DNA of 17,388 bases from the UHGV virus genome UHGV-1838449, one strand, 5' to 3'. A program made the position numbers and the translations under genes. This DNA is from a virus. The notes below the pieces were generated by a model, which searched no databases, had not been told where the DNA came from, and saw only the letters and a program-made list of their open reading frames with translations. How positions within the stretch are numbered: the stretch's first letter is position 1; each line of letters opens with the position of its first letter. Shown here in pieces: positions 1 through 11,170 of this stretch.

Positions 1-78
1 ACGTAAACTTTTTCCGGTTGTTGTCGATAGCTCTATATCCCTCAACCGGAAAATAATAATACCAAAATGCTTAGCCCT

Positions 79-458
79 GCTAATAATCGCCTAATCCAAA
101 CGCCTCATTCATGTTCTGGTACAGTCGCTCAAATGTACTCCGGATACACGGCTCGCTGATTTCCAGGGCATTGTCGTAATTCAGCGACCTGTCCCGTGTA
201 TCACGGGCCTGCGAATTCATCAAGGAAAGCATTGTGGAGTGAAGTATCAAGTCACGCCATATTTCGCGATCAGGATTGTGTGTGATGGTTACATCGCCCA
301 GCCCAGGGCTGTTTAGTCATCAGCGTTTTCTGACCGTGTTGAGATTTCAACCTGTTGCAGGAAAAATGAGTAGATAGGGCAAATGTGCTGCCAAACTTAT
401 CTTTTACGGGGTGAAGGTAGATATCGTTTGAAGGGTATCTGGTGTCCCCTGCAGACAT
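79..458 (-). pseudogene. Possible decayed tyrosine-integrase remnant (no intact int ORF)
   Basis: Minus-strand frames are broken by stops. One frame (about 79..231) reads MLSLMNSQARDTRDR, resembling the lambda Int C-terminal TMASQYRDDRGR as I recall it, but with Ala where the catalytic Tyr would be. The 62-aa ORF 270..458 has a weak PSNDIYL...DKFG resemblance to an Int N-terminus. The position is where int is expected, downstream of xis. Confidence 0.25.
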
Positions 459-527
459 CTACTTGACGCGGCAGGGGATTGATTGGAATGGTGTTTTTTA
501 GATGTGAAAAATATTTTACCCGCTATT

Positions 528-728
528 TTACCCATTGGCGCGGCTTAAGAGCTTATTTTTGAATTCACAATGGTCACGATATAACCATCTTGCTCGCCCG
601 TGGATAACTTTGGCTTTTGGCAGGTCGCCGGACTTAATCCGGTCGTAGATGAAGGTTTTACCGAAGCCAGTATCGGCCATGATGAATTTCAAATCAACCA
701 GTGAATCAGGTTGTAGTTCGTGTTGCAT
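528..728 (-). CDS. xis: AlpA/Xis-family small DNA-binding protein (excisionase-like)
   Basis: 66-aa ORF with ATG start and a GGAGA ribosome-binding site 8 nt upstream. Pattern LKFIMADTGFGKTFIYDRI...W is typical of the AlpA/excisionase family. Sits at the left end where lambdoid xis lies. Confidence 0.7.
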   Translation of the reverse strand: MQHELQPDSLVDLKFIMADTGFGKTFIYDRIKSGDLPKAKVIHGRARWLYRDHCEFKNKLLSRANG

Positions 729-772
729 GAGTGCTATCTCCGAATAGGGAATCGAACCTGCAAATCAGGCAA

Positions 773-795
773 TAAAAAACCGCCATCAGGCGGCT
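773..795 (-). terminator. Intrinsic terminator on the minus strand between the zinc-ribbon gene and xis
   Basis: Hairpin CCGCC-ATCA-GGCGG (780..793) followed by a T-run on the minus strand (A-run 774..779 on plus). Confidence 0.5.
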
Positions 796-859
796 TGGTG
801 TTCTTTCAGTTCTTCAATTCGAATATTGGTTACATTGTTTTCATATATGAATAAATAAA

Positions 860-1039
860 TTAGCTTTTTTCGTTGCCTTCGCGTTCTTTATTAATTTTGA
901 CAAACTCGTTTTTACCACGCTCTCCAAATGCGTCTTTAGAGTAGTTGTATCCGCAATCGCAGCACACATAATCATCAGACCATCCACGCATTGTTTTTTC
1001 TTTTGCAATATTTCCAGAACCGCATTTTGGACAAGACAT
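860..1039 (-). CDS. Small zinc-ribbon protein (two CxxC pairs)
   Basis: ORF track 860..1072 starts at TTG; an internal ATG at 1039 with a GGAGG site 7 nt upstream gives MSCPKCGSG...CCDCG. Function unknown. Confidence 0.5.
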   Translation of the reverse strand: MSCPKCGSGNIAKEKTMRGWSDDYVCCDCGYNYSKDAFGERGKNEFVKINKEREGNEKS

Positions 1040-1135
1040 ATCACTACCTCCAAAGCATGAGTGAGATGACAACGTAACATTGATTGGAGATTAACAATAG
1101 ATTGCTGATGTAAAAGATATGTATAAGCTTCGCTT

Positions 1136-2071
1136 TCAAAGTGGAGGCTCTGGTAGCGGCATCCAGTGTGACGGTTTCCACGACGCACCAGGAATTATCC
1201 ACCCATCATTAGCGTCAGGATGACCCGGGATGTAAGTCGCCCATTTCATTCGCCAGTCACCTTTCCTGTCAAACTCCACGGCAACAAGAACGGCTGTTTT
1301 GGTATCCGGCATTCGATCACTACAGCTTATCCAACCATCCGGAGTTACCGGAGAGTTGCCGGGTTCTTTAATGTGCAAGCGAGGCTCACCATCTTTTGGC
1401 TCAGGCCACTGGCGCTCCATGTTGATCTTCAATTTATCTTCCATAGCAGCGGTAATTTCAGCATCGCTGATGCCAGCACGGCGCTGTGCATCCCACAACA
1501 GAAACTGCATATCAGCCCACTCGCTAAGATCGTCTGGTTCGGCTGCGGCTTCCAGTGCCTCTTTTGAGAGATGTTTCAGCGGGCCAACTGGACCAACACA
1601 GCCAAACGTCTTATCTGACCATTCAGCATGGCGCTGCCGGATTAAATTGCGCAATTGAAGCGATGATCCGTTCTCCTCTGACAACTCTTCATGATTACTT
1701 GCAGGTTCGACACCCTGAAGCATGGCGGCGCGGCAGGCATTCCAGCCTCTCACCTCTGCAATAGCGGCAACAGCATCGACCGCGTACATTTTAAGAGGGT
1801 TGGGCATTGGTTTTTCTTCAGGTACTACTGGCATTGGAGGGGCGGCGTATACTTCAATAATCCCATTATCAATAGGCCATTCTCCATCCTTGAGGTAGTC
1901 ACTTGTGCCGTCAACTTGCTGTTCTGCAATGTGGAATGCACCTATTGGTTTTGCTTCCAGTGATGCCAGTGCAATTTCATAAGCACGGCGCTCAATATTG
2001 TCTCGGACGTCCAGGCTGCCAATTCGCTCTCTGATTTCTTTAATCAGTTCTTTGTCGGTGAAAGTTGTCAT
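1136..2071 (-). CDS. Phage accessory protein with a central MazG-like nucleotide pyrophosphohydrolase-like region and a C-terminal DUF551-like domain
   Basis: 311-aa ORF. Central region (LSKEALEAAAEP...LSEWADMQFLLWDAQRRAGISDAEITAAMEDKLKINMERQW) resembles the MazG/DUF550 helical NTP-pyrophosphatase fold. C-terminal W/P-rich tail (WISCSDRMPD...WMPLPEPP) resembles DUF551. Family assignment is from memory, not a search. Confidence 0.55.
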   Translation of the reverse strand: MTTFTDKELIKEIRERIGSLDVRDNIERRAYEIALASLEAKPIGAFHIAEQQVDGTSDYLKDGEWPIDNGIIEVYAAPPMPVVPEEKPMPNPLKMYAVDAVAAIAEVRGWNACRAAMLQGVEPASNHEELSEENGSSLQLRNLIRQRHAEWSDKTFGCVGPVGPLKHLSKEALEAAAEPDDLSEWADMQFLLWDAQRRAGISDAEITAAMEDKLKINMERQWPEPKDGEPRLHIKEPGNSPVTPDGWISCSDRMPDTKTAVLVAVEFDRKGDWRMKWATYIPGHPDANDGWIIPGASWKPSHWMPLPEPPL

Positions 2072-2074
2072 ATG

Positions 2075-2362
2075 TTAGTCCTCATCCACTTCAACGCCAT
2101 CTTTCAGCGTGATGCCGTGCCAATCATCAGCCCAACTGGTTAGCCCTGGCGCATCAATGCTAGGCATATAGACGCTTGCAGTGTGGTAGCCCTTATCGTT
2201 ATCAATGCTGGCAACGTGCTCGCCGTTGTATGCGCTCAGCGTGTCCAGGACGCTATAAAACTTTCCTCCGGCTGCCCTGAAATCCTTTACAGCCTTCACA
2301 AGGCGATTCCACGCTTTTTCCTGTTCTGGCGTCAGGTCGATTAATTCCTGCAAAGTTGCCAT
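2075..2362 (-). CDS. Hypothetical phage protein (95 aa)
   Basis: ATG start directly after the stop of the upstream gene, with an AAGGAGAG ribosome-binding site inside the 26-bp repeat. No recognised motif. Confidence 0.5.
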   Translation of the reverse strand: MATLQELIDLTPEQEKAWNRLVKAVKDFRAAGGKFYSVLDTLSAYNGEHVASIDNDKGYHTASVYMPSIDAPGLTSWADDWHGITLKDGVEVDED

Positions 2363-2363
2363 A

Positions 2364-2861
2364 TCACTCTCCTTTGATGCGAATGCCAGTGGTACTCATT
2401 CTCCTGATTTCCCAGAGCACACGAGGAACACCACCGTTTCCGACCGGATCGCGTTTACTCCGCAGGGCGACGCTTGATTCCGCCCAGCTTTTTCTTGGAG
2501 GAAGCTCTTTCACACGAACAAAACCAGCTGCGCGGAGAGATGCTCCTGATTCATCTGCCTGGGTGTACGTAATACAACGTTGATAACCCATAGCCTTTGC
2601 TGCCCGCCAGACAGCACCATAAAGCGCGCTGTTAGCGTTGCGTTCTCCTGTGGTACATGTGCGATTTACTTCAAGCGTTAATCCATCGTCCAAATGTCGT
2701 GCAACAGGTCGACCGGCTGTCGCCACACCTATCAATTCTCCGGCATCATTTCTCAGACCAATGCTGAATTTATGCCCCACCGGGGGTTTATTGTGTCGGT
2801 GATGTCTGGATATAAACGCCTTCGCAACACGAAGAGTAATCGGTGAAATCTGCACTCTCAC
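2364..2861 (-). CDS. Hypothetical phage protein (165 aa), C-terminus GIRIKGE
   Basis: GTG start overlapping the TGA of the upstream Ea22-like gene. The last 7 residues and the 26 bp encoding them are identical to the end of the Ea22-like gene. Confidence 0.5.
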   Translation of the reverse strand: MRVQISPITLRVAKAFISRHHRHNKPPVGHKFSIGLRNDAGELIGVATAGRPVARHLDDGLTLEVNRTCTTGERNANSALYGAVWRAAKAMGYQRCITYTQADESGASLRAAGFVRVKELPPRKSWAESSVALRSKRDPVGNGGVPRVLWEIRRMSTTGIRIKGE

Positions 2862-3541
2862 TCTCCTTTGATGCGAATGCCAGCGTCAGACATCATATGC
2901 AGATACTCAACTGCATCCTGAACCCATTGACCGCCAATCCCGTAATAGCGATGCGTAATGATGTCGATAGTTACTAACGGGTCTTGTTCGATTAACTTCC
3001 GCAGAAACTCTTCCAAGTCACCAGTGCAGTGCCTGATGACAGGAGTTTTCCCAGGATGGCGAACAACAAGAAACTGATTTCCGACTTCACGGACTTCGTT
3101 GCTTTCCAGTTCTGCAATGCGCTTACTTCCATCCGCGATTACTCCCTCGTAATATTCACGCTGCTCGTTGAGTTTTGATTTTGCTGCTTCCAGCTCAACA
3201 CGCAGTTTCCCTACCGTTAGCGCAATATCCTCGTTCTCCTGATCGCGGCGTTTTATGTATTGCTGGTTTCTTTCCCGTTCATCCAGCAGCGCCAGCACAG
3301 TAGCTGGACTGGCTGCGGCGATGAATTCAGCATTGGCCTGCTGTTCCATTTGGAAATCTTCATCGAAACCGCTTTCTGGATGCGCTCCTTCAATTCTGCA
3401 AATGGGAATATATCCAGCAGCCTCGCGATGAATTAGTGCATCATCACCATCAAATCGGCCCTCTCCATATTCTAGCGACCACACACCACACGTTGCTTTC
3501 TCTGCCTTTTCACGCAGTGCCTGGTAATTAATTTCGCTCAC
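2858..3541 (-). CDS. Ead/Ea22-like protein
   Basis: 227-aa ORF with N-terminus [21 protein letters not shown] and a central coiled-coil-like region, as I recall for Ea22-like proteins of lambdoid early-left operons. GTG start overlapping the upstream stop. Confidence 0.6.
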   Translation of the reverse strand: MSEINYQALREKAEKATCGVWSLEYGEGRFDGDDALIHREAAGYIPICRIEGAHPESGFDEDFQMEQQANAEFIAAASPATVLALLDERERNQQYIKRRDQENEDIALTVGKLRVELEAAKSKLNEQREYYEGVIADGSKRIAELESNEVREVGNQFLVVRHPGKTPVIRHCTGDLEEFLRKLIEQDPLVTIDIITHRYYGIGGQWVQDAVEYLHMMSDAGIRIKGE

Positions 3542-3966
3542 TGGTTGCCTCCTTTGCGAAGCTGGGCGGCGAACTCGTTAAGTGATATGTAGCAATCTCC
3601 AAATGTTAACGAACCGCTCGACTGCATATGCTCCATAGCCATCTCCACGCCCTGCGCCCGTACTTCAGCCAGGAAGGCGTCGGTGGCCGGGGTTTTGCAG
3701 GACATTTGAATTGCCTTCTCAGTGTATAAAACACCCGTTCGATTGGCGGTATACATGATGGTGTTTACAGCATCTTGATGTGCTGATTTCACAGCCTCAA
3801 CTTCAGCAGCCAGCGCCGCGCACTTGGCCTCCGCTTCAGCAAATTTACGCACCAGATACTCAGCATTTGTTTCGTTAACCTTTAAATCTCGTGGGATGCA
3901 TTTACCTTTCAGAAAACCATCCATCTCAATTAGTGTCATTTGTTTCATTTCTTTCCACTCCACCAC
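3538..3966 (-). CDS. Hypothetical phage protein (142 aa from GTG; internal ATG starts at 3948/3939 possible)
   Basis: Long ORF in the coupled early-left gene chain, Ala/Glu-rich helical region. No recognised family. Confidence 0.5.
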
Positions 3967-4403: not shown

Positions 4404-4718
4404 TTAATTTATTCGTATGCCTTCTCTTTCTTCATCGAGTTTTTTTAGCTTGTATCGCATAGCTCTTACTGAATAAATTGAGCGGCAGGTTGCAATTGCT
4501 ATTTCTTCTGCGGAGAACTTACCGAAAAGTGATACTTCGGCTCTTGTCCAGCGTCTTCCACGAAGTCGGCTAACAATGTCAGCGCCAATCCTTGTTGCTT
4601 TCGCCATTACTGCTTTTTCAGTCCTTTCCAGTTTTTCAGCGATAACTTCAACTGGCATTGTCGCCGCTACTTCGCGCAAGAAATCGACTTCCCATTTCTC
4701 CCATGGAGTCTTTTTCAT
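4404..4718 (-). CDS. Hypothetical protein, possible helix-turn-helix DNA-binding (104 aa)
   Basis: Two segments resembling helix-turn-helix units (VIAEKLERTEKAVMAKATRIG and AEEIAIATCRSIYSVRAMRYKL). Basic composition. Confidence 0.45.
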   Translation of the reverse strand: MKKTPWEKWEVDFLREVAATMPVEVIAEKLERTEKAVMAKATRIGADIVSRLRGRRWTRAEVSLFGKFSAEEIAIATCRSIYSVRAMRYKLKKLDEEREGIRIN

Positions 4719-4729
4719 AGGCGATACCG

Positions 4730-5212
4730 TTATTTGATAAGAAGTGAAGGTTTCCCAACTTTGAGTTGAGCGCCGGGGATATTTATTCCTGCTTTTAGTT
4801 GGTGTTTGATTGCCAGTTTGTCGGCTTTAATTGTCGTTTCAAACTCAACGTATTCAGGAGGAAGGGCGCTTGAGTCGATGATTTCTACAGTTTCTGACGG
4901 TTTGCGGATTGTTACCTGGTGAATACCTGCTCGAATATTTTTCTTGCCAACCATTTCAAGCGATGACGCTATATATGATTTGATGCTGTCAATCTTATTT
5001 TGAATTACTGCGGCTCGCTCATTCAGTGACTTTGCCTCTTCCTTGAGGCGTTCGGCATAACCAGATTCATTTTTAATAATGGAAAGAAGTTGCTCTATTT
5101 TATCGGTAAATTCTCCTTCCATGCCTTCTATTGTGTCAGCAATCATCTCTGGTTCTAAATCTGAATCCATCAATTTTGCGTATTCATTGGCAATTTCATA
5201 TAGTTTGCTCAC
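4730..5212 (-). CDS. Siphovirus Gp157-like protein
   Basis: About 160 aa with a coiled-coil-rich N-half. Proposed GTG start at 5212 (MSKLYEIANEY) with an AGAGG site; the ORF track TTG start is at 5218. Directly downstream of recT, a known Gp157/RecT pairing. Family call from memory. Confidence 0.5.
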   Translation of the reverse strand: MSKLYEIANEYAKLMDSDLEPEMIADTIEGMEGEFTDKIEQLLSIIKNESGYAERLKEEAKSLNERAAVIQNKIDSIKSYIASSLEMVGKKNIRAGIHQVTIRKPSETVEIIDSSALPPEYVEFETTIKADKLAIKHQLKAGINIPGAQLKVGKPSLLIK

Positions 5213-6107
5213 TGGCAACCTCTAGTTTCGCTTTGCATTCTGCGTAAATGGCTTGTACGTTCTGCTGCAATTTCATTCCAGATGTCAGGCGATATGCTTC
5301 TGCAAAATATCGCTTCAAATCGTCCATGTTTTCTGCCTGAGCCATTTCATCGCAAAGAAGTTGTGCTTTATCCATTATTTCCTGCTGGCGTTTCCGTTCA
5401 TCTTCGCGGATATCTTCCTCTGATTTGTGCGGCATAACTGGTTCAGTCCACACACCTTCTTCTTCGTTTAGTACGTGAATAGCACTATCAAGACGTGATG
5501 CCTTAGGCCAATACTTGCTTGCACGCTTTACGACCGTCTTTCGCGCCATCTCATTCCAGTGATTTACCCATGGTCCTTTATCGCTGAATGCCGCCTTGCT
5601 TGTTTTCCTTACAGCCTCAATTTCAGCCAGACTCATCTCTTCCGTTAGATAATCACCTGCCGGCGTCTTAACTGTGCAGTAAACGCCAACGATATCACCA
5701 CGATCACCGAAGGCGTTGTATTTATGGGTTGGTGCTTTATCAAGCCCGTTTGACTCATAGGTATCGTTAGCATGAACAAGTTTTGCCTGACCCCATGAGA
5801 TAACACCAGACTCCATTGCAATATGAAGCAATCCCATATAGCTGATATCAAGGCAAACCATGCCATCGCGCGGAACTAGATAAGCCAGTTTGCTTGCAGG
5901 GTTTAAGGTGATGCCGATCGCCGCAACGTTGATGATGGCGTTCTGTGCGCTGGTTGGATTTGCCAGTGCTGTTTTAGCCAGGTAATCGTTTTTCTGGAAA
6001 TACTGAATTGCAAACTGGCTTTCCTTAGCCCATGTCACCGTCTGTTCAGTCAATGCTCCGCAGAATAACTGCTCTTGCTGTTTAACGAATTCAACGATAT
6101 TGCTCAT
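5196..6107 (-). CDS. recT: RecT-family single-strand annealing recombinase
   Basis: 303 aa. Motif GPWVNHWNEMARKTVVKRASKYWP closely matches E. coli RecT GPWVTHWEEMAKKTAIRRLFKYLP, and the family-typical core is present. Confidence 0.85.
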   Translation of the reverse strand: MSNIVEFVKQQEQLFCGALTEQTVTWAKESQFAIQYFQKNDYLAKTALANPTSAQNAIINVAAIGITLNPASKLAYLVPRDGMVCLDISYMGLLHIAMESGVISWGQAKLVHANDTYESNGLDKAPTHKYNAFGDRGDIVGVYCTVKTPAGDYLTEEMSLAEIEAVRKTSKAAFSDKGPWVNHWNEMARKTVVKRASKYWPKASRLDSAIHVLNEEEGVWTEPVMPHKSEEDIREDERKRQQEIMDKAQLLCDEMAQAENMDDLKRYFAEAYRLTSGMKLQQNVQAIYAECKAKLEVASEQTI

Positions 6108-10131: not shown

Positions 10132-10293
10132 ATGACAAAACGTCGTAAGAAATACCAGGAAAAAGAAGAGATTCGACACCCTGATTCACCTGAGGGATTA
10201 GTGGTAGCCGCAGCAAATAACAGGGCGTTCGCAGAGCGCCTTGTTGGTGTTTACAGACTAGCCAAAGCAGGAGTGAAACATGGGCGTCGTTAA
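10132..10293 (+). CDS. Small basic ORF (53 aa) between cII and the replication initiator
   Basis: ATG at 10132; MTKRRKKYQEKEE...; stop lies upstream of the preferred initiator start at 10343. No recognised family; could be non-coding leader. Confidence 0.3.
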   Translation: MTKRRKKYQEKEEIRHPDSPEGLVVAAANNRAFAERLVGVYRLAKAGVKHGRR

Positions 10294-10342
10294 GTTAGCT
10301 GATTACAGGCATAACCCTGTACAACATCAGGAGGCATCCAGT

Positions 10343-11170
10343 ATGGGGTATGTCTCTATACACCGCCAGTTTATGGACAGCAGGCTCTATAAAGACTCTC
10401 AGGCAGTACATCTTTGGCTTCACTTAATCCTCAAGGCTAATCACGAATCTACTGTCGTCAATACGGATATCGGTACGATAACTGTTGATCGCGGTCAGAT
10501 GATAACTGGACGCCCGTCGCTGGTCAGAGAAACATTCATCCCCGACAACAAAGTTCGGAGCTTATTACGGACTTTTGAGTCGAAAGGTATGCTTAATATT
10601 TGCTCGATGGGGAAGAAATTTAGCCTGTTTACAATCGTTAAATATGACGATTTTCAGGCAAAAAATTGTCCAACGGTTGTCCAACGGTTGTCCAACGCAA
10701 ACACCAGTAATGGCGCGGCTCTCAGCGGAGATTGTCCAACGGTTGTCCAACGGTTGTCCATAAACAATAATATAAATAATATCTCTAATACTGACGTATT
10801 AGAGAGTACCGCAGCAGACAAAAAGTCTGACAAGAAAAAACCTTCCGTTAGCTGTCAGGATGTTGTCGATGCTTACCACGAAATCCTTCCTGAAGCTCCA
10901 AGAATTCGCGCACTGAATGACAAGCGTAAAAACCAGATCCGAACGTTCTGGCGCAAAGCCGGAGTGATAACCCGCCAGCTTGACGGGCATGGGTTCACGA
11001 TGCAGGACTGGAGAAATTATTTGAGCTACGTTGGCGAAAATTGCCGATGGATGTTCGAAGAACGCCCAAACCATCAACGCGGAACCGTCTGGCACAAAAA
11101 GGGATTTGATTTCCTGCTTAACGACAATACCTACCTGAAAGTTCGTGAGGGTGAACACGATGACCGATAA
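10343..11170 (+). CDS. Replication initiator (O-like function) with the origin iterons inside its coding sequence
   Basis: Preferred ATG at 10343 has an AGGAGG site 8 nt upstream; the ORF track start is 10280. Origin iterons and an AT-rich tract lie mid-gene as in lambda O. Directly followed by a DnaB-type helicase gene. Not lambda O by sequence. Confidence 0.7.
   Translation: MGYVSIHRQFMDSRLYKDSQAVHLWLHLILKANHESTVVNTDIGTITVDRGQMITGRPSLVRETFIPDNKVRSLLRTFESKGMLNICSMGKKFSLFTIVKYDDFQAKNCPTVVQRLSNANTSNGAALSGDCPTVVQRLSINNNINNISNTDVLESTAADKKSDKKKPSVSCQDVVDAYHEILPEAPRIRALNDKRKNQIRTFWRKAGVITRQLDGHGFTMQDWRNYLSYVGENCRWMFEERPNHQRGTVWHKKGFDFLLNDNTYLKVREGEHDDR
10666..10800. repeat. Replication origin: six 11-bp iterons in two triplets plus an AT-rich unwinding tract
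   Basis: TTGTCCAACGG tandem at 10666, 10677, 10688 (third ends GC) and at 10732, 10743, 10754 (last partial, TTGTCCATA). Cluster offset is 66 bp, i.e. six 11-bp units. Followed by AACAATAATATAAATAATATCTCTAATA (10763..10790). Confidence 0.7.

Follow-up and report, generated by a model that had tools for sequence, protein, structure and literature searches.

A short coding repeat at gene boundaries of lambdoid prophages as a probable linker for the exchange of accessory genes

The stretch of DNA analysed here (the window) comprises 17,388 nucleotides (nt) of the virus genome UHGV-1838449, and the genes around the locus of interest form a tightly packed leftward operon on the minus strand. Our subject is the 26-mer TCACTCTCCTTTGATGCGAATGCCAG, here called J, which occurs in the window as two exact copies, read on the plus strand at 2364-2389 (J-b) and 2858-2883 (J-a). 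No third copy was found in the window at up to 3 mismatches, and 200 dinucleotide-preserving shuffles of the window gave 0 matches, for a chance expectation of 0, which bears out the exact direct repeat described in an earlier note on this DNA. On the minus strand both copies read CT GGC ATT CGC ATC AAA GGA GAG TGA, or G-I-R-I-K-G-E-stop. J-a thus provides the 7 last codons and the TGA of ea22 (2858-3541, minus strand; 227 amino acids, aa), in the context ...SDA-GIRIKGE-TGA, and J-b provides the same 7 codons and TGA for an XF1762-family gene (2364-2855, or 2861, minus strand; 163 aa), the cargo of the cassette between the copies, in the context ...STT-GIRIKGE-TGA. After J-b comes t-ATG, the start of a 95-aa open reading frame (ORF; 2075-2362, minus strand) that has no family match and is translated from J-b. 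The Shine-Dalgarno (SD) sequence concerned, AAGGAGAG, lies inside the K-G-E codons (plus-strand positions 2861-2868 in J-a and 2367-2374 in J-b), 6-7 nt before each next start codon. The gap from stop to start is 1 nt for the ATG of the 95-aa ORF and 2 nt for the GTG at 2855, which is most likely where the XF1762-family gene starts, giving 163 aa; the RefSeq start call in a near-identical prophage agrees. The minus-strand translation therefore confirms that each copy ends one gene and holds the ribosome-binding site for the next; as to the start context, the SD and stop part of the earlier description stands, whereas its GTG at 2861, overlapping the stop, is the less likely start. The repeat stretches weakly to 38 nt at 87% identity, but the added 12 nt consist of the opening codons of two genes that are not related, and their likeness looks coincidental. 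Elsewhere in the window, a 104-aa ORF at 4404-4718 ends in ...EGIRIN (4404-4424), which resembles GIRIKGE. We considered this end as a third copy and rejected it: its DNA has no match to J within 6 mismatches, and the resemblance is probably coincidence.

The two proteins that share this end are unrelated, as had been claimed: one matches Pfam Ead_Ea22 at 2.9e-39, and the other, which has a GNAT fold, is assigned to NCBIfam XF1762 at 4.3e-61. The match of ea22 to its Pfam model (PF13935) covers model positions 1-139 of 139 at 135.2 bits, against a cut-off of 27. J is native to this gene. Window positions 2856-3299 are 94% identical to the 3′ half of phage lambda ea22, which itself terminates with the exact 26-mer, J-a being identical to lambda positions 29847-29872 (NC_001416). 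A further sample of ea22 genes was drawn by the coiled-coil region, so that the tail played no part in their selection; it keeps close relatives of the window's coiled-coil. The exact 26-mer stood at 32 of 79 3′ ends, and 54 of 78 were within 6 mismatches; 17 of the 79 ended in CTGACATTCG(C/T)... (ADIRIKGE), several had TAAACATTGGCATC... (VNIGIKGE), and the remainder were unrelated. Most Ea22 variants share the longer end R-A-A-G-I-R-I-K-G-E. Because J ends lambda ea22 and recurs among the 3′ ends of the tail-independent sample, it is the native 3′ end of ea22. In some contigs TAAACATTGGCATCAAAGGAGAGTGA lies upstream of XF1762 and was considered as a non-coding copy placed after a TAA; this was rejected, as the sequence translates in frame to ...V-N-I-G-I-K-G-E-stop and represents another ea22 type. 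Ea22 proteins with unrelated C-terminal domains have been reported to end uniformly in K/R-G-E, a motif termed '+GE' whose significance the authors called unknown (Dydecka et al. 2020, PMC7093339). These are the same residues as the end encoded by J; in our data, however, K-G-E results from translation of AAAGGAGAG, which is the SD of the gene that follows, and it stands within a longer junction that is also found on proteins other than Ea22. The '+GE' ending of Ea22 is explained as the next gene's SD inside a longer linker.

In the XF1762 protein, by comparison with its homologs, the same end is a graft. The gene scores 205 bits against NCBIfam NF045478 (cut-off 50), and 5663 homologs were found at E ≤ 0.001, most of them 153-154 aa long, with a query coverage of only 93%. 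When 22 homologs were aligned, the conserved core stopped at ...RVLWEIR, and the ends beyond it varied (GL, MK, GV, SAAGIKVEVK, AAGIQVIEGEDGE, MSTTGIRIKGE); most homologs finish 1-3 residues past the core, with no J-like tail. An AlphaFold model of the protein has a mean pLDDT (predicted local distance difference test score) of 84.8, with the last strand at residues 145-151 and values below 50 at residues 156-163. Since the core ends at ...WEIR, homologs stop at 153-154 aa, tails vary and residues 156-163 are modelled at such low confidence, the final ~11 residues, MSTTGIRIKGE, are best described as a foreign, junction-derived tail that is disordered in the model. A sequence search against the PDB gave no match, so that a fold search was needed; it returned a GNAT fold, with Mu Mom (8bv8) as the best PDB match (TMq 0.68, 11% identity) and generic GNATs close behind. 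The Pfam Mom model (PF25680) scores the protein at 23.4 bits, just under the cut-off of 27.1, and 21 of the 22 homologs match it at E ≤ 0.01. Among relatives, a 664-aa DNA methylase follows closely downstream of the Salmonella XF1762 gene, a single small ORF separating the two (contig L242, 3748-5742), and the Klebsiella gene (contigs L239-L241) adjoins a Kiwa defence system (KwaA/KwaB). Such neighbours fit a DNA-modification or anti-defence role of a Mom-like GNAT protein. As for the cassette's own signals, the single promoter-like site detected, against 1.5 expected, lies outside it, and there are only weak terminator-like matches, none above chance, the coding-strand one being inside the ORF. 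With no promoter or terminator of its own above chance, the cassette depends for its expression on the SD in J.

The recurrence of the same seven residues on Ea22 variants, on XF1762 and on an HNH endonuclease described below, together with the longer R-A-A-G-I-R-I-K-G-E end of most Ea22 variants, could suggest that GIRIKGE is a selected C-terminal peptide tag, such as a docking motif, a degron or a localisation signal. We consider this quite improbable. The frequent variants change the amino acid sequence (G to D in 17 of 79; VNIGIKGE), most XF1762 homologs lack the tail, and where it is present it is disordered in the model. The similarity lies at the nucleotide level, the degenerate third positions of the exact copies being free of synonymous scatter. 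In lambda, no gene follows J, and the SD half at least is therefore dispensable there.

If J were a gene-boundary linker rather than a feature of individual proteins, it should recur at junctions with different genes on either side, and it does. A scan of IMG/VR for the exact 26-mer found at least 120 contigs, each with one exact copy. Among the matches listed, ORFs ending in J belonged to Ead/Ea22 (110), XF1762 (10) and an HNH_3/AP2 endonuclease (1), and the 60 residues before the J tail fell into 10 mutually unalignable families. ORFs starting after J belonged to 17 protein families, mostly with no known function but including DUF551 and a ClpX-type zinc finger. When the 60-nt DNA flanks were classified instead, 118 instances comprised 14 upstream and 22 downstream types in 54 combinations; 10 of the 14 upstream types were paired with two or more downstream types, and all four flank combinations were present in 51 two-by-two sub-tables. 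J spans the stop codon and the approach to the next start, nearly all downstream genes beginning 1-2 nt past the stop. With one representative per combination, column conservation was 1.0 in J, 0.7-0.9 across the 7 nt upstream (CGCGnCG, encoding R-A-A) and the downstream nATG, and at a background of ~0.4 beyond ~7 nt, although the full conservation inside J arises by construction because this census was conditioned on the exact 26-mer. In the tail-independent sample, pairs of different upstream type differed at 70% of the 60 upstream sites and at 5.7% of J sites, and exact J was common to 7 of 8 upstream types. The HNH_3/AP2-type endonuclease ORF (contig L064, IMGVR_UViG_2925891887_000006, 1098-1608) occupies the ea22 position and ends in ...GVAGIRIKGE with an exact 26-mer; a frameshift is possible close to where the ORF begins.

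The junction is also abundant. A 30-mer centred on J was present in 2966 of 5426 complete E. coli genomes, which hold 6199 such sites (median 2 and maximum 11 per genome), 330 of them on plasmids. A 37-nt junction consensus around J matched 389 phage records, including those of Stx phages, P22-like Salmonella phages, Shigella phages and the P1-like phage P7. In P7 the Ead-like gene (Upf88.3; contig L252, 847-1533, corresponding to AF503408 88328-89014) ends in the junction with a 37/37 match, and the P1-like phage-plasmid SJ46 also carries an Ead-like gene that ends in it. Since P1-like phage-plasmids carry the junction, the linker connects the lambdoid and P1-like gene pools. A taxonomic range drawn from one-genome-per-species assemblies was set aside: the 36 matches (L201-L236) were mostly lambda contamination in unrelated taxa (Streptococcus, Streptomyces, Bacillus, Prevotella, Pseudomonas), on low-coverage contigs of ~48.5 kb or on very short ones, and the matches there that look genuine come only from Escherichia, Shimwellia and Phytobacter. 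The earlier note had read J as a shared linker and had held that a repeat unique to this genome, absent from the junctions of relatives, would point to local duplication. The search of related prophages clearly places J at their junctions, flanking many different accessory genes, and so supports the linker.

These junctions also bear on the idea that J acts at the RNA level, as a structured translational operator, a small-RNA target or a processing site. J alone does fold into a weak hairpin (CAUUC/GAGUG, -3.5 kcal/mol) with AAGGA in its loop. Its stability is marginal, however, and across the 54 flank contexts the SD has an unpaired probability of 0.54, against 0.49 for the flanks; no Rfam family matches the window at gathering score, and we regard this reading as very unlikely. 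ARAGORN found no tRNA in the window.

Direct comparison of related prophages reveals the junction in both empty and occupied states. Two E. coli prophages that share an integration site next to ybhC, in strains 317 (L237) and 04-00955 (L238), have the arrangements ea22-J-95aa, with one exact J, and ea22-J-XF1762-J-95aa, with two exact copies spaced by 494 nt, the same distance as in the window. Between these two prophages, 99.6% identity extending from the integrase side stops precisely with the final base of J; identity in the other flank is 92.7%. Window positions 1305-2884 are 98.8% identical to the 04-00955 prophage, ending 1 nt beyond J-a, and 1305-2389 are 99.4% identical to the 317 prophage, ending at the last base of J-b. 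In place of window positions 2885-3181 both prophages have a different segment of 153-154 nt. By this comparison with the two strains, 2885-3181 (minus strand) forms a mosaic patch that carries a lambda-type ea22 C-terminal domain: homology resumes at 3182, in the conserved coiled-coil, and the other edge of the patch abuts J-a. Judged from these alignments, the window is a mosaic with breakpoints at the edges of J. The region 1900-3600 of the window is present over at least 80% of its length in only one complete E. coli genome; in other prophages, the 95-aa ORF directly follows ea22. RefSeq calls ea22 a partial pseudogene, 'missing C-terminus', in both prophages (L237 3491-4004 and L238 3985-4498); the intact 181-aa ORF there ends in AAGIRIKGE, and the pseudogene call is apparently an artefact caused by the mosaic C-terminal domain. 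On the other side, window positions 1-1304 are unrelated to the int-xis side of the two prophages except for a 68-nt patch at 766-833, and the same alignments place another mosaic breakpoint within the DUF551 gene, near 1305.

Two perfect direct copies around a single gene might equally bring to mind a recent local event, either a tandem duplication or the insertion of an XF1762-bearing mobile element that duplicated its target site. Several observations make this a very doubtful account. The same two-copy layout with its 494-nt spacing recurs in other strains and contigs, at times with a different upstream junction variant, and the single-copy junction is far commoner than the cassette. No transposase, integrase or terminal inverted repeat was found in the cassette, and the GNAT-fold gene is the sole ORF that separates the copies. 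Usual target-site duplications are also far shorter than 26 nt.

Further evidence came from contigs that encode XF1762 homologs with other tails, in which lineage-specific repeats flank the gene. Salmonella (L242; 2978-3007 and 3469-3498) has an exact 26-nt repeat, TGGCATCCAGGTTATCGAAGGAGAAG, the upstream gene ending in GIQVIEGEGQ and XF1762 in GIQVIEGEDGE. The Klebsiella repeat (L240; 2972-3001 and 3457-3486) is exact over 23 nt, CGCCGCTGGCATCAAGGTGGAGG, with ends AAAGIKVEAE and SAAGIKVEVK, respectively, and that of Enterobacter (L250; ~2468-2498 and ~2968-2998) over 31 nt, TGGCATCAAATTGCAGATCGAGGGGGAGTGA, with ends DGIKLQIEGE and AGIKLQIEGE. In Cronobacter (L247/L248; ~2486-2501 and ~2971-2986) the exact repeat is 16 nt long, TTGAGACAGGGGGTGA. 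In all four lineages the repeat matches the end of the gene that directly precedes XF1762, and its sequence differs between genera. Enterobacter and Cronobacter have a Pfam Ead_Ea22 gene in this upstream position; the Klebsiella ORF there has no gene call, and its end is similar to that of one C-terminal type of E. coli Ea22. For the short-tailed XF1762 of E. asburiae (L246), whose immediate neighbour is not ea22, no flanking repeat was found. The two copies around XF1762 thus evolve in concert. Because they are alike within a lineage and different between lineages, continued copying or exchange among junctions is required, and divergence after one duplication does not suffice. Concerted repeats of this kind are what a recombination-active linker predicts.

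Taken together, the comparisons of genomes show that accessory genes at J have repeatedly been swapped, inserted or lost. We think it likely that J is a conserved gene-boundary linker in the exo-xis accessory region of enterobacterial lambdoid prophages, at which neighbouring genes are exchanged by homologous crossover, and we infer from the same comparisons that homologous recombination at J, by RecA or by a phage RecT/Red-type recombinase, causes the exchanges. The strong SD within J drives translation of any gene that begins 1-2 nt later. Because J is identical in DNA across phages whose two sides are unrelated, it offers them a homology patch of 26-33 bp. A crossover at J between co-resident phages or prophages could then swap, add or remove the neighbouring gene, and both reading frames and the translation signal would survive it. 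A single unequal crossover between ea22-J-Y and ea22'-J-X-J-Z would suffice to add or remove X; recombination between two J copies in one genome would delete the 494-bp cassette. The window would have arisen when an XF1762 gene with a grafted J tail was placed between the J of ea22 and the 95-aa gene, resulting in two exact copies.

The alternative that deserves most attention is illegitimate recombination followed by selection, in which joints form at random and the survivors are those that keep the ea22 end, a strong SD and tight stop-start spacing, J being a functional island rather than a substrate. J's SD is indeed ideally spaced, with nearly all downstream genes starting 1-2 nt past the stop; SD-encoded KGE, KGG and GGE tails also end other small genes of the region, at other junctions; and the '+GE' motif of Ea22, its significance unknown (PMC7093339), can be seen in the same light. 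The first XF1762-J fusion was in any case non-homologous. Even so, an SD takes up ~6-8 nt, yet 26-33 nt are identical, including the non-SD part GGCATTCGCATC. Random joints do not reproduce the same 26 nt on XF1762, on the HNH gene and in 10 unrelated Ea22 C-terminal contexts, and the joint changes of the XF1762 repeats between genera point to copying or exchange, not to independent selection. We therefore judge random joining to be unlikely as the explanation of J.

Several points nevertheless weigh against exchange by homologous crossover at J. The comparative data show exchanges at the junction but neither which enzyme made them nor that homology was the cause, and the first XF1762-J fusion requires at least one non-homologous event. 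Conservation of J was built into the first census, a bias that the tail-independent sample, with its close coiled-coil relatives, corrects only partly. Because J also has a translational function, the clustering of breakpoints could partly reflect selection on random joints. Length is a further concern: Shen and Huang (1986) reportedly placed the minimal efficient processing segment (MEPS) for efficient RecA-dependent exchange at about 23-27 bp. At 26 bp, J is at the lower limit of such exchange. MEPS is mentioned in PMC2327257, and Red/Rad52-like recombinases tolerate short or diverged homologies (PMC2327257, PMC3945230). Finally, the earlier note had called for deletion variants lacking the intervening gene. 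A form without that gene does exist, in E. coli 317 with its single J, but the exact deletion product of the window was not found: none of 5426 complete E. coli genomes covers at least 80% of a synthetic 240-nt query that joins the lambda-type ea22 end to the 95-aa gene. Matches to this synthetic junction begin 6-13 nt before J and run on into different downstream genes.

Other features of the operon are relevant to these mechanisms. A RecT-family recombinase (5196-6107, minus strand) is encoded in the same operon as J and is a candidate catalyst of short-homology exchange. Gp157 (4730-5218, minus strand) also belongs to it, with several small ORFs between Gp157 and ea22, and so does a gene combining a dATP/dGTP pyrophosphohydrolase with DUF551 (1136-2071, minus strand). 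At the other end of ea22 lies a 5′ junction, AAAGGAGGCAACCAGTGAG (3537-3555, minus strand), which encodes ...KGGNQ-stop of the upstream gene and overlaps the GTG start of ea22. This junction is common to at least 19 different upstream sequence types; as it is kept behind so many, ea22 is bracketed by two linkers. Farther away, at 10654-10760, iterons spaced by 11 nt (GGTTGTCCAAC units) lie inside an O-like replication gene (10280-11170), an array that is the expected lambdoid origin.

Whether phage mosaicism stems from random illegitimate joints and selection or from homologous exchange at linkers has long been debated (PMC3233612, PMC2327257). J provides an unusually clean and abundant test case for this debate: it has dozens of flank pairs produced by reassortment, its empty and occupied states both occur naturally, and the linker model is testable directly at J. 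J also illustrates how unrelated accessory proteins, here a Mom-like GNAT that may modify DNA, gain a common, meaningless tail on entering the array. For annotation this implies that shared C-terminal peptides of prophage proteins can be junction artefacts, and that mosaic ea22 genes are being mis-called as pseudogenes.

Among known systems, morons resemble the XF1762 cassette in that an accessory gene is inserted between genes that are adjacent in related phages. As Juhala et al. (2000) are said to have described them, morons carry their own promoter and terminator. The XF1762 cassette differs in showing neither above chance and in being fused stop-to-start into an operon. Integron cassettes are alike in other ways: they too are promoter-less single genes in one orientation, with a recurring short element and an upstream promoter. 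Unlike the integron element, J is coding and SD-bearing, and exchange at J would most simply be general homologous recombination; among the genes examined next to the cassette array there is no integron integrase, and no attC-like imperfect inverted repeat involves J, which folds at only -3.5 kcal/mol. One can still imagine that J and its sister junctions, namely the 5′ junction of ea22 and the lineage-specific variants, serve as a dedicated system of cassette exchange on which a phage function acts, such as the operon's RecT/Gp157 pair or a junction-specific nuclease like the J-tailed HNH gene. We hold this to be improbable; if true, the exo-xis region would be an integron-like array for accessory and anti-defence genes, and the co-changing XF1762 repeats in five genera would be the footprint of active, site-directed copying.

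The relaxed recombination catalysed by Rad52-like proteins (Red-beta, RecT, Erf; PMC2327257, PMC3945230) offers another parallel, with a RecT in J's own operon and J as a short island of identity between unrelated flanks, although the diverged substrates in those studies are hundreds of bp long and J is a perfect patch of 26-33 bp. We found no mention of GIRIKGE in the literature searched, and PMC9836094 contains no statement on breakpoints at junctions. The theory of modular evolution is said to go back to Susskind and Botstein (1978). For lambdoid phages, it has been proposed that homologous exchange takes place at short boundary sequences that are conserved (PMC2327257, PMC3233612, citing Clark et al. 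2001). Like the boundary sequences of HK620 attributed in those two papers to Clark et al., J is short, sits at a gene boundary and is conserved between non-homologous modules, and it shares with them non-homologous alternative flanks and independent reassortment of left and right sides. It differs from them, as far as the citing papers describe them, in being largely coding (7 codons), in being grafted onto unrelated proteins, in having copies that co-vary around one cassette across genera, and in being quantified across thousands of genomes. The idea of boundary sequences is thus established, and J is a well-documented and well-quantified example of a lambdoid boundary sequence.

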